Below are positions 59,195 to 64,000 of a stretch of DNA of 64,000 nt, one piece after another. The notes under the pieces are model-generated. The model had not been told where the DNA came from and did not search any database. It saw only the letters and a list, made by a program, of their open reading frames with translations. The number at the start of each line of letters is the position of its first letter. Position 1 is the stretch's first letter. Origin of the DNA: Mobula hypostoma (lineage: Eukaryota); contig NC_086108.1 in NCBI RefSeq assembly GCF_963921235.1, forward strand, positions 41,790,001-41,854,000. Direction: 5' to 3'. Position numbers and translations under genes: made by a program.

Positions 59195-59365
59195 AAGTAA
59201 GTAAAGGCATCCATTAGTCTTGCGAGACCATGAATCTGCGCCTGGAAAGTCTTCAATCTCCAGGGCGCAGGCCTGGGCAAGGTTGTGTGGAAGACCAGCA
59301 GTTGCCCATGCTGCAATCTCCCCTCTCCACGACACCAATGTTGTCCAAGGGAAGGGCATTAGGAC
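59195..59365 (+). mobile_element. Probable SINE/RTE-related repeat fragment
   Basis: GC-richer block AAAGGCATCCATTAGTCTTGCGAGACCATG...GTTGTCCAAGGGAAGGGCA; family assignment from memory only. Confidence 0.4.
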
Positions 59366-59581
59366 CCATCAATAACTCCAAAAGACCAGAAGTAGAGTAA
59401 ATACTGTAAGGCTTTTATTAGCAGTAAAATGTGACCTCGACCATGCTGAGTATCTGTCCCGGACTGAGGGAGGAGCAGTGGCACAATCGTCTTTATTCAG
59501 GGGTCTGTGGGAGGAGCCACAGGGGCAGTCAGCAGAGGGCTGTGTCCAGACAGGTAACCCAGTAACAAAATATTCACCACA

Positions 59582-59597
59582 TTCACCCCTCCTTTTT
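59582..59597 (-). promoter_or_regulatory. Polypurine tract of the Gypsy element
   Basis: Minus strand AAAAAGGAGGGGTGAA abuts the TG start of the 3' LTR. Confidence 0.85.
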
Positions 59598-59929
59598 GTA
59601 AAAAGAGTCCCGCGGGGTGAAGTGACCGACAATATTTAAAACGAGTATATTTACAGGTCAAGTCTATCAGGCGGTCGAGTCCGTCGCTGTGATCTACGTA
59701 GCACCAGCGGTGATTGCACCGGCGATGGCGGTTGTGCTGGCTCCGGCCTGACTTGAGGTGCCAGCACGTTAGGCGTCGGTAATCCCTCGTGCGTGTGCAT
59801 CGCGCCCGGTATGGGGGTGTTGTGTGGTGTCTGTGTAGGGCTTGGAGTACGTGGTGTATATATATATCGGTGGATACGGGGTTAATAGTCACCATGGGGT
59901 GTTCAGGGTAGGGGCCCAGTGCTCCTGCG

Positions 59930-62560
59930 GGCGCCAGGTCGCGGATGGAGACCGTGTCCACCCGCCCATCAGGTAAAACCACATGAGCATACTGGAGGTT
60001 CGCATGAAGTAAGTGAACCCTCACAACTATCGGGGAGTACTTATTGCTCCTCGCATGTTTCCGGAGCAGCACTGGCCCCGGGGACGTCAGCCAAGTTGGT
60101 AGGGTGGTCCCAGTGGTCGACTTTCTGGGAAAAGAAAAGAGCCGCTCATGAGGGGTGGCATTGGTGGCTGTGCATAACAGGGAGCGGATGGAGTGGAGTG
60201 CCTCGGGAAGGACCTCCTGCCAGCGAGAGACTGGCAGTCCCTTTGACCTGAGGGCTAAGAGTGTGGCTTTCTACACCGTGCCATTCTCCTTCTCTACCTG
60301 TCCATTCCCCTGGGGATTATAGCTCATGGTCTACTAGTTGCGATACCCCTAGCCGGCAGGTATTGGCGCAGCTCGTCACTCATAAACGAGGACCCTCTGT
60401 CACTGTGGATATGGCCTGGGTATCCGAACAGAGTGAAGAGCTTGCGCAGGGCTTTTATAGCTGACATGGTAGTGGTATTGGGGCAGGGGATGGCGAAGGG
60501 GAAACGTGAATACTCGTCAATAATGTTAAGAAAGTACACATTGCAGTCAGTGGAGGGAAGGGGGCCCTTAGAGTCAACACTCAGTCGCTCAAAGGGGCGG
60601 GTCGCCTTGACGAGTTGTGCTTTTTTGGGTCGGTAGAAATGCAGTTTTCACTCTGCGCAGACTTGGCATTCCCTGGTCATCGTCCTGATCTCCTCAAGGG
60701 AGTAAGGCAGGTTCCGGACTTCACAAAGTGGAAAAGCTGGGTGACCCCCGGGTGGCAAAGATCTACATGTAGGGCGTATAGCCAGTCGATCTGCGCGCTG
60801 GTGCACGTTCCCCGGGATAGGGCATCGGAGGGCTCGTTGAGCTTCCCAGGCCTGTACATGATGTCATAGTTGAAGGTGGAGAGTTCAATTCTCCACCTCA
60901 GAATTTTATCATTTTTGATTTTGCTCCGCTGTTGGTTACTAAACATGAATGCGACTGAGCGCTGGTCAGTCAGCAGGGTGAAATTTTTGCCGGCGAGATA
61001 ATGCCTCCAGTGCCTAATAGCTTCCACTATAGCCTGGGCCTCTTTCTCCACCACGGAGTGCCGAATTTCAGAGCCTTCAAGGGTACGGGAGAAGAACGCC
61101 ACCGGTCTTCCCGCCTGGTTGAGGGTAGCAGCCAATGCAAAGTCGGAGGCGTCACTCTCTACTTGGAAGGGAATGGCCTCATCCACCGCATGCATTGCTG
61201 CTTTGGCAATGTCCCCTTTAATGCAGCTGAAGGCCGCGCAGGCCTCGGCTGGGAAGGGTAATGTGGTGGACTTGACCAGGGGGCGGGCCTTGTCTGTGTA
61301 GTTAGAGACCCATTGGGTGTAATATGAAAGAAGCCCAGGCATCTCTTGAGGGCTCTGAGGGTATTGGGAAGAGGGAGTCCCAACAGGGGGCGCATACGGT
61401 CGGGGTCAGGGCCAATGACTCCGTTCTCCACGACACACCCAAGGATAGCAAGTCGGGTGGTTCCGAACACATGCCTGTCCTTGTTATAGGTGAGATTGAA
61501 AGCTTTGGCCGCTTGGAAAAATTTTTGGAGGTTGTTGTCGTGATCCTGCCAATCGTGACTGCAGATGGCGATGTTATCCAGATATGGGAACGTGGCCTCC
61601 AGTTGGCACTGGTCCACCATCCGGTCCATTTCCCTCTGGAAGACAGATACACCATTCATGACACCGAAGGGGACGTGCAAGAAGTGATAAAGCCTGCCAT
61701 TCACCTCGAAGTTGGTGTAAGGGCGGGCCTCCCAGCGAATGGGGAGCTGATGGTAAGCGGATTTTAGGTCTGTGGTTGAGTACACCTTGTACTGTGCTAT
61801 CTGATTGACCATATCTGCGATGCAGGGTAGAGGGTGCGTGTCGTGCTGCGTGAACCTATTGATGGTCTGGCAATAGTCCACGACCAGCCTATTTTTCTCC
61901 CCGTTGCGAACAACGACCACCTGTGCCCTCCAAGGACTTGTGCTTGCTTCAATGACCCCCTCCCTAAGCAGCCACTGCACCTCCAACTTAATGAAGGCTC
62001 TGTCCCCTGCGCTGTACCTCCTGCTTTTAGTTGCCACAGGTTTACAGTCGGGGTCAGGTTGGCGAACAGCAGTGGGGGAGGGATCTTGAGGGGGGAGAGG
62101 CCGCAAGTGGGGTTCGTTGTGCGGCTGTTGGCATGGTGTTGGGTGGGATGTGCGGGTTGGTGTGTGTGGGTGGTCAGTAGCGGGGTATGTGACGTATTCC
62201 TACAAAACTGAGGATTTACAACAGTGATTGGTGGGAGGGGCCCGTCATACTTCATTGTCACGCTTTTCAGGTGGCTCTGGAAGTCGAGCCCCAATAGCAC
62301 AGGGACACACAGTTGAGGCATGACCAGTAACATAAAGTCTCGATATCCTGTGCCCTGCACCACTAGTGTTGCTACACAACCCCCCCCCCACCCCCGATGT
62401 CTGTTGTATGCGACCCGGAAGCCATGGCGACCCTCTAACTTACCAGCCATATCGCGAGTCCGCAATGCTGCACTGTGTCCGGGTGGAAAAAACTCTCTGT
62501 GCTGCCCCTGTCAAACAGGCAGCTTGTCCTGTGCCCCTCCACCAGGATGTCCATCATTGA
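59930..62560 (-). pseudogene. pol: Gypsy pol (protease, RT, RNase H, integrase), frameshifted
   Basis: PR CLFDRGSTESF; RT SPWRAQVVVV, DLKSAYHQ, PFG, YLDN; RH ESDASD, EKEAQAIV, TDQ; IN HPG..CxxC, IIDEYSRF, IHSDRG. Confidence 0.92.
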
Positions 62561-63522
62561 CCTTGCAAGCTGGGGGGAGCGCTTTGGTCGAGGGTCATGG
62601 AGGCCAGAGTTGAGTCACTGTCTTGGTCTGGCACGGCACGGTGCCCCGTGAGCACCCGTGGGTCATAGGCGGTGGGAGGTGGCGCCAACCAAGATGGCCG
62701 CCCCCATGTCTCACACGTGGTGGCGGCATGCAGGCAAGATGGCGACCCCCATGCCTCGCATGCAGCGCTGCTCGACCCCGCTCGCGGTTTGGACTTACAA
62801 GCCTTGACGAAGTGGTCCTTCTTTCCGCAGCTGCAGCAGGTAGCTTCTTGGGCCAGGCAGCATTTACAGGGGTGCTTCTCGAGTCCGCAGAGGTAGCACT
62901 TCACAGACTCGCGACTGGCAGCAGCTGTGGTCGATTCGCCGGTGGGTTGCGGGGTCTGCGGTGTCCACGAGGCCATCGGGGTTCGCGTGCCTGGAGAGCC
63001 TCAAGAGTTCTGCAGAGCGGCCTCCAGCATGTTGGCCAGCTCAATCACTGAACATAAGGTAAGATCTGCTTGGTCCTTCAGCCGCTGGCGCACGTACACT
63101 GATCTGGTCCCCATGACGAAGGCATCTCTTACTAGGAGCTCCACATGCTGTTCAGCCGTCAGCCCCTGGCAATCGTAGGTCCGCACGAGTGTCTGTAGGG
63201 CCTGGACAAACTCAGCCCTCGACTCCCTGGGCCGCTGCTGCCGTGTCGCTAAGCGATGCTGCACGTAGACGGTGTTTACCGGCCGCAGGTACTGTCTTTT
63301 GAGGGCGCTCATCGCACCGTCGTAGCTCGGCTGGTCTCTGATCATCAAGTAGACCCGAGGACTGACCCTGGAGAGGAGAACTCTGAGCTTCGCGGTGGGC
63401 TCGGTCACTTCAATCTCCTCTAGGTATGATTCGAAGCAGGCCAGCCAGAGTTCAAAAGCATTTCCAACTTCAGGTGTTTGCGGGTCGAGGTCTAACTTGT
63501 CGGGTCTCAGATCACGTTCCAT
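62560..63522 (-). pseudogene. gag: Gypsy gag, disrupted
   Basis: MERDLRPDKLDLDP...LATRQQRPRES...RDAFVMG; zinc knuckles CYLCGLEKHPCKCC and CCSCGKKDHFVKAC. Confidence 0.9.
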
Positions 63523-63547
63523 GCTTTAAAATTACTGCTAATAAAAT

Positions 63548-63780
63548 TGATGCACCATCAGTAACTCCAAAAGATTGGAAGTAGAGTAAATACTGAAAGG
63601 CTTTTATTAGCAGTAAAATGTGACCTCCACCATGCTGAGTATCTGCCCTGGACTGAGAAGAGGAGCAATGGCACAATCGCCTTTATTCAGGGGTCTGTGG
63701 GAAGAGCCACAGGAGCAGTCAGCAGAGGGGCTCGTCCAGACAGGTAACCCAGTTACAACATATATATATGGTTTACCACA
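63548..63780 (-). repeat. Gypsy 5' LTR (233 bp)
   Basis: TG...CA ends, direct repeat of the 3' LTR, AATAAA on the minus strand near 63603-63608. Confidence 0.92.
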
Positions 63781-64000
63781 CTATCATTACATTTTGATTA
63801 GCTCTTCTTGAAAGTTTGCAGCTTTAATAACAAAGTTCAGTACATATTCACTGACCATATCAGAAAGAAGTGACTGAGGAGAAAACACATGTGGTTTACG
63901 TGTTAATTAGAGAAACAACCAACTGAATTAACCGACATACTGACCTTTTCATCACACTTGGTACATTCCAGGCAAAGAAGCTAACTATTTTGAAAATTGT

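Follow-up and report, generated by a model that had tools for sequence, protein, structure and literature searches.

How does a retrotransposon that has no tRNA-type primer site begin reverse transcription? This question is raised by a 4.4-kb Ty3/Gypsy element on the minus strand of Mobula hypostoma contig NC_086108.1 (NCBI RefSeq assembly GCF_963921235.1, positions 41,790,001 to 41,854,000; this stretch of 64,000 nucleotides [nt], numbered from its first letter, is referred to below as the window), at whose 5′ end the duplex under study is located. All features of the element are given on the minus strand. Its 5′ long terminal repeat (LTR; 63548..63780, 233 nt) runs from TGTGG to GCATCA and has TG...CA ends, its limits having been set by 30 genomic copies together with the 3′ LTRs and the 5-base-pair (bp) target duplications of other copies. 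A one-base spacer, an A (63547), separates the terminal CA from the position of the primer-binding site (63532..63546), which is occupied by 15 nt whose exact reverse complement forms a block inside the LTR (63602..63616). As the first-pass annotation of this DNA had stated, this 15-mer is located one A after the LTR end. The 25 nt from the LTR to the gag ATG (63522) hold no TGG, i.e., no tRNA-type site. The LTR block, hereafter the arm, ends at its 3′ side in AATAAA (63603..63608), likely the poly(A) signal. Judged from comparison of related elements, the self-complement is a trait of a whole Gypsy clade and not of one copy, and the arm is a candidate self-primer.

The hairpin of the window copy exceeds chance (fold z −3.6, with none of 200 shuffles as good), and the fold of the window's 3′ LTR is unstructured (z +1.6). 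The first-pass annotation had drawn attention to the identity of the block in both LTRs, which it saw to differ at roughly 20 positions. The divergence was confirmed by counting (20 of 206 shared nt, i.e., 19 substitutions and one gap); at that level a 15-nt block free of differences arises with P ~0.22, as expected by chance, and selection as read from block identity was therefore rejected. The further claim, which confines the duplex to the 5′ LTR, is correct for the local hairpin but not for complementarity as such: the counterpart of the arm in the 3′ LTR (59413..59427, with AATAAA) is predicted to be open, with no partner behind it, and is also complementary to the site.

To survey the clade, we used the reverse transcriptase (RT) core of the window copy (61372..62049, with YLDN) as query; an alignment of 59 RT-bearing proteins led to the best 80 of 334 metagenome loci and to 8 contigs from prokaryotic bins, and a gag start was found in 50 of these 88 related loci. 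When the 200 nt preceding gag were scanned without bias, 28 of 44 testable loci proved to hold a perfect inverted repeat of at least 12 bp, whereas shuffles of the same 200 nt gave means of 6.0–7.8 bp and reached 12 bp only in one locus's set of 20. When the search was anchored at the LTR end, at least 11 Watson-Crick pairs in the first 13 were present in 38 of the 50 loci with a gag start. The sequences of the remaining 12 were read by eye: pairing was decayed or split by a contig end in four (L047, L048, L052, and L084), the junction was kept and the arm lost in two (L080 and L098), and the LTR-leader junction was gone in six (L051, L055, L062, L063, L066, and L108). Together with the window, the 38 loci represent 23 families (RT identity 39–93%, median 54%), which carry 22 different 13-mers and form duplexes of 12–17 bp. 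The duplex was found even in the deepest branch of the clade (L114), and a TGG site, which the first-pass annotation had named as a feature that would speak against self-priming if present in relatives, occurred within 8 nt of the LTR in none of 39 junctions. Clade members L111–L118 are contigs in prokaryotic genome bins, likely host contamination, and the NCBI protein P0055 of the clade carries the label 'bacterium'.

Arm and site agree far better within than between families. More specifically, 295 of 299 duplex pairs are Watson-Crick, versus 65% with arms crossed between families (53% at positions 5–13); as a point against our interpretation, family representatives were the best-paired members of loci picked for at least 11 of 13 Watson-Crick pairs, which inflates the 295 of 299 and disfavors G.U. 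Likewise, G.U makes up 1 of 299 duplex pairs versus 28 of 225 pairs in predicted inner helices, the duplex scan having scored Watson-Crick pairs only. On the RT tree, the minimum numbers of changes for arm (62), site (63), and pair (64) are nearly equal, so nearly every change was matched. The covariation between LTR and primer site on which the first-pass annotation had made its proposal depend is thus present across families.

Copies within the host genome (3.48 Gb) were also compared. The LTR-leader stretch has 3111 candidate matches there, of which 40 were scored. Genomic copies were chosen by an altered primer site, blind to the LTR. A site change at 63538 was accompanied by the matching arm change in 27 of the 30 copies read (of 59; one lacks the arm), compared with a background of 1 of 29. 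For a site change at 63539, the arm was changed in 23 of 30 copies read (of 42; CpG decay counted, one tandem pair included in the 30), compared with 1 of 28 in the background. Two loci (L168 and L169; C2:189516603 and 189517316), 713 bp apart, are tandem duplications of the LTR-leader region.

These data bear on the possibility that the primer is a tRNA half or another host small RNA, the LTR match being secondary. Copia lineages are known to use half-tRNAs as primers (PMC6317226), and the anticodon loop of host tRNA-Ser(GCT) matches 9 nt of the site. This was the best match in a comparison with 12 distinct tRNA genes of the Lys(TTT) and Ser(GCT) types only, with no mitochondrial tRNA among them, so the tRNA-free character of the site proposed by the first-pass annotation stands for these two types, the span of the sample. 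The match, however, leaves out the first three bases of the site and does not extend to either in-genome variant, and across families the 22 different sites each follow their own LTR. We consider a host small RNA a highly improbable primer. A tandem cluster of many tRNA-Lys(TTT) genes is located at C90:4.02–4.22 Mb of the host genome.

We interpret the arm as a self-primer because the complement starts at the position of a tRNA site, the 3′ end of the arm points into U5, and the site has tracked the LTR through ~60 changes. Cis self-priming, from an internal or unmapped start, is on these sequence grounds fairly probable. In this mechanism, the RNA would fold back at its 5′ end so that the arm pairs with the primer site, and a cut, probably by the RNase H of the element, would be made directly after TAAA, between 63602 and 63601, at the junction with a second helix. 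This position is predicted by analogy with Tf1, whose first 11 bases pair with the site and are cut off by RNase H between bases 11 and 12 (PMC7175516, in the portion available), the self-primer being set in a multi-helix structure (PMC10085805, likewise in part). From the 3′ end released by this cut, minus-strand synthesis would begin one base away from the end of the LTR, giving a strong-stop DNA of only 24–66 nt across families and 55 nt here, and strand transfer would proceed through the 10–30 nt between hexamer and poly(A) site. In retroviruses, plus-strand synthesis copies the tRNA primer; here, it would copy the self-primer and rewrite the primer site from the arm each cycle, and pairing would stay Watson-Crick because the primer is copied back into the site. 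Unlike that of Tf1, the primer would have a capped 5′ tail left unpaired, as the arm is probably ~35 nt inside the transcript.

The anatomy of the leader across the 23 families is consistent with such a register. The spacer after the terminal CA is exactly one base in all 23 families (A in 20), the arm ends in TAAA or TAAAA in 22, and GCC or ACC stands directly behind it in 18; the arm lies 23–65 nt from the LTR end (median 42), and gag starts 9–35 nt past the LTR in 20 of 21 families. Counted from the 3′ end of the arm, position 10 holds a G-C pair in 21 of 23 families while its neighbors vary freely, and this conserved pair is possibly a register mark for the cut. In 19 of 23 families, compared with 6.8 expected, a helix of at least 4 bp begins with the base that directly follows the arm; its predicted counterpart in the window spans 63552..63601.

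The 3′ end of the arm coincides with a canonical poly(A) hexamer in 15 of 23 families (AATAAA in 7, ATTAAA in 8), where 16% would be expected given TAAA, and canonical hexamers occur elsewhere at only 7 of 2737 other positions. In folding predictions, the unpaired probability of the hexamer is 0.09 with the site and 0.55 without it, and it is lower with the site in 22 of 23 families. The helix that positions the primer may therefore also mask the hexamer at the 5′ end and leave its 3′ copy open, a modeled role to which we give about an even chance. A primer ending at the hexamer shortens the transfer region, and this cost would make sense if the helix also hides the 5′ signal.

The duplex could alternatively be purely regulatory, masking the 5′ poly(A) signal or tuning gag translation 9–35 nt downstream, with some other primer in use. 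Such a role fits a helix that covers the hexamer position in every case and sits immediately ahead of the start codon, but a regulatory helix need not begin one base after the terminal CA nor shun G.U pairs, and the 9–35 nt leader displays no other primer site. A regulatory role without priming is, in our view, quite unlikely.

The hexamer also brings up priming from the other end of the transcript, in which the arm copy of the 3′ LTR, just ahead of the poly(A) tail, would pair with the site and prime once the tail and the few bases behind TAAA have been taken off; R would in that case be copied from the 5′ end in its entirety, and sequence upstream of the arm would mediate strand transfer. 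The 3′ arm copy is equally complementary to the site, and this scheme would explain why the arm ends at a poly(A) hexamer and seems to be ~35 nt inside the transcript. Against it, the local hairpin is strongly favored (z −3.5) and would be the first to pair with the site, a local junction agrees with the conserved helix that abuts the arm, and we know of no precedent for an exact removal of tail and spacer. Priming by the 3′ copy is accordingly rated as unlikely. Of 87 copies, 78 were aligned for a linkage map of the LTR; subfamily structure dominated this map, which neither located the strand-transfer region nor separated the cis and 3′-end models.

Where the transcript begins decides how closely cis self-priming resembles Tf1. 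In plain Tf1-type priming, the transcript would start at 63616, as the first-pass annotation had predicted, and its first 15 nt would be the primer; the priming step itself is the same as in the cis reading that we prefer. This is an established mechanism (PMC7175516, accessible in part), host sushi-like elements have a TATA-like box ~30 nt before their arm, and deep-branching L114 has an LTR short enough for a start near the arm. Yet no TATA-like motif was found 24–35 nt upstream of the arm in any of the 23 families, which speaks against a start at 63616. TATA-like motifs are instead located 50–80 nt upstream in four families and initiator-like motifs (TCAGT or GCAGT) 32–39 nt upstream in four; these promoter motifs are weak, and most families show none. 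We thus think a start at the arm itself improbable. In the window, an A-rich box (63681..63688) containing a second AATAAA (63687–63682) lies 34 nt before the initiator-like motif TCAGTC (63651..63656) and is, from this place, likely a TATA-like promoter element. On these weak clues, the candidate start is probably near 63654, with the arm some 35 nt inside the transcript. Two families (L050 and L112) have a CCGCCAT motif, presumably YY1-like, 26–28 nt before the arm and behind the initiator-like motif, which hints at a start ~30–35 nt before the arm. A spliced gag RNA, suggested by an acceptor-like motif upstream of the arm, was considered and rejected: the motif occurs in 4 of 23 families versus 1.3 expected, no conserved donor follows the gag knuckle, and contigs of RNA runs contain no GT-AG joint.

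Several observations weigh against cis self-priming with a masked hexamer. Tf1 needs its primer at the very 5′ end, and we found no tested precedent for an internal arm. No transcript end, cut, or cDNA was observed; contigs of presumed RNA runs were uninformative on where the transcript starts, ends, or is polyadenylated. A counterpart of the third helix in the 'pretzel' of Tf1, formed by the leader 3′ of the site, does not exceed shuffles (6.1 bp versus 6.4 bp shuffled). In 8 of 23 families, the arm ends in GTTAAA, TTTAAA, AGTAAA, GCTAAA, or ATTAAC, and in two of these eight a canonical hexamer stands beyond the duplex, 5 nt downstream in one and 26 nt in the other. The partner of the hexamer is transcribed 55 nt after it, so masking must outrun 3′-end processing, and promoter proximity alone could silence the 5′ signal. 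Within the genome, covariation tracks two subfamilies and thus amounts to about two events; position 63621 is linked to the primer-site variant at r2 ~0.9, the arm at 0.7; and 7 of 30 copies with the 63539 variant and 2 of 30 with the 63538 variant keep an unmatched arm. The covariation at 63538 is still telling, because an arm change alone would leave a G.U pair, yet the site changed too.

The first-pass annotation had doubted that the element is a chromovirus, and our data bear this out. A chromodomain or SH3_Tf2-1 after the integrase was found in none of 11 long relatives nor in the window, and the RTs of the clade, 24–31% identical to sushi-like, plant chromoviral, CsRn1-like, and Gmr1-like RTs, form their own branch in quick trees (Shimodaira-Hasegawa-like approximate likelihood ratio test [SH-aLRT] 100; sushi-like plus plant chromoviruses 98). 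Labels in these trees, which include neither Tf1 nor sushi-ichi themselves, were assigned by Pfam domains, and a tree that forces the clade together with the sushi-like group was not rejected (approximately unbiased test, p-AU 0.11). An origin of self-priming independent of the sushi group is nevertheless likely on this phylogenetic evidence. We put forward only tentatively, at somewhat less than an even chance, that the clade independently evolved a tRNA-free priming in which an internal arm is cut behind TAAA, the poly(A) signal is the 3′ end of the primer, the helix silences the 5′ signal, and the site is rewritten each cycle, so that arm and site change together.

Other elements of the same genome served as controls. 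Elements with SH3_Tf2-1, whose relatives carry chromodomains, show the classical pattern, with a complement of 11 nt that lies ~30 nt behind a TATA-like box and ~170 nt away from the end of the LTR. Of the 6 copies scored, 1 has a perfect complement and the others a decayed one; two unrelated self-priming groups are thus present in one host genome. Such sushi-like chromoviruses are abundant in the host (5456 candidate SH3_Tf2-1 matches; L131–L139, e.g., C12:108875700–108885600). Elements with Integrase_p58_C, which we take from their domain content to be Gmr1-like, have a TGG site in 6 of 7 scored copies, the LTR end of the seventh being uncertain, and a self-complement of at most 7 nt; one such locus (L263) is a tandem pair. 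Four DUF7041 (CsRn1-like) elements likewise have TGG-type sites and a self-complement of at most 7 nt. Four decayed DUF7083 copies, presumably Mag-like, branch apart from the clade in a tree that contains no Mag C-clade reference. Gmr1-like membership of the clade was rejected, as Integrase_p58_C, a tRNA site, and RT grouping were all lacking. CsRn1 membership, considered because of the TGTGG start (Table 3 of PMC3601003), was rejected as well: the DUF7041 score is 18 bits against a cut-off of 28, and the host DUF7041 elements have TGG sites, are 28–31% identical in RT, and form a separate clade.

Among known systems, Tf1 and Tf2 of Schizosaccharomyces pombe, Tj1, and the Tf1/sushi group resemble the clade in that they have no tRNA site, the sequence after the LTR complements their own LTR, and a helix abuts the (in our case predicted) cut, as far as the available portions of the sources describe (PMC7175516, PMC10085805, and PMC4600332). 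In contrast to Tf1/sushi elements, the clade has neither chromodomain nor SH3_Tf2-1, and its RTs are 24–29% identical to sushi-like and plant chromoviral RTs. Its arm ends in a poly(A) hexamer 23–65 nt from the LTR end, compared with ~170 nt in host sushi-like elements; and, in contrast to Tf1, it shows no third pretzel helix and its arm is probably not at the start site. For the TAR lineage of plant Ty1/copia (Houba and Osr-1) and the Tcn1 clade, self-priming was likewise predicted from an LTR complement, and in TAR the trait lies outside chromoviruses, as it does here; these belong, however, to another superfamily or lineage and to plant hosts, and no link to a poly(A) signal is made in the accessible text (PMC6317226). 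The HIV-1 poly(A) hairpin, a 5′-leader structure that engages the hexamer in pairing and presumably suppresses the 5′ signal (PMC12789967), parallels the masking proposed here, but it is local to R and separate from tRNA priming, whereas the putative masking partner in the clade is the primer site, outside the LTR. Fungal GalEa copia elements, which have a conserved hairpin site, and Dictyostelium Skipper are also without a tRNA site, but their structure differs from that of the clade, as both papers report the absence of a complementary block in the LTR (PMC5445492 and PMC5006619). MolGy1/MolGy2 and Cigr-1, large or widespread non-chromoviral clades of marine invertebrates (molluscs and annelids) outside the classical clades, are candidate names for our clade, compared by description only; the term PBS has 0 hits in the main texts, as far as accessible (PMC6238403 and PMC8556966).

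A full-text literature search, within the text portions it covered, returned self-priming for Tf1/sushi, Tcn1, and TAR, and none for a non-chromoviral animal Gypsy element or for a primer ending in a poly(A) signal. Repbase entries reportedly mention self-priming palindromes in some fish Gypsy families, so an earlier notice is possible. To our knowledge, self-priming has been demonstrated only in fission-yeast Tf1 and predicted mainly for its chromovirus relatives and one plant copia lineage. If our interpretation is correct, this abundant and separate animal clade, distinct in architecture, would show tRNA-free priming to be common, its elements may escape tRNA-fragment silencing aimed at primer sites, and the 70–100 nt involved would offer a compact model coupling priming with 3′-end choice. 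Annotation is affected as well, because LTR finders that depend on a tRNA site will rate such elements as defective.

The rest of the window copy conforms to Ty3/Gypsy, with two TG...CA LTRs, a polypurine tract (59582..59597), target duplications in the family, and the order gag-protease-RT-RNase H-integrase. The gag-pol region (59651..63522; gag with zinc knuckle, protease region, RT, RNase H, and integrase, no chromodomain) is an open reading frame split into at least 7 pieces by stops and frameshifts. The 3′ LTR (59366..59581) has lost its last 7 nt, and its first 20 nt are unlike the 5′ LTR; its start (59581–59560) also deviates from that of the family. With its diverged LTRs and lost 3′ end, this copy is old and dead; it shows no target duplication, and given its odd 3′ LTR it is likely a recombinant or rearranged element. 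Elsewhere in the genome, both flanks were present in 16 of 20 whole copies; among these 16, a 5-bp target duplication is exact in 11 and has one mismatch in 3. The closest solved relative of the RT is that of Ty3 (E 5e-20), and the nearest RT relatives are from rays and catsharks (~71–84%), followed by corals, an anemone, a mussel, and further assemblies (52–62%). No relative was found among viral contigs in 2 scans, nor any Rfam match in 59200–64000. The gag of a relative in the ESM Atlas falls into unnamed eukaryotic clusters, most commonly Arthropoda, which is a lead only. Among the genomic copies L001–L030, gag codons 3 and 4 (63515–63510) are much more variable than the surrounding bases.
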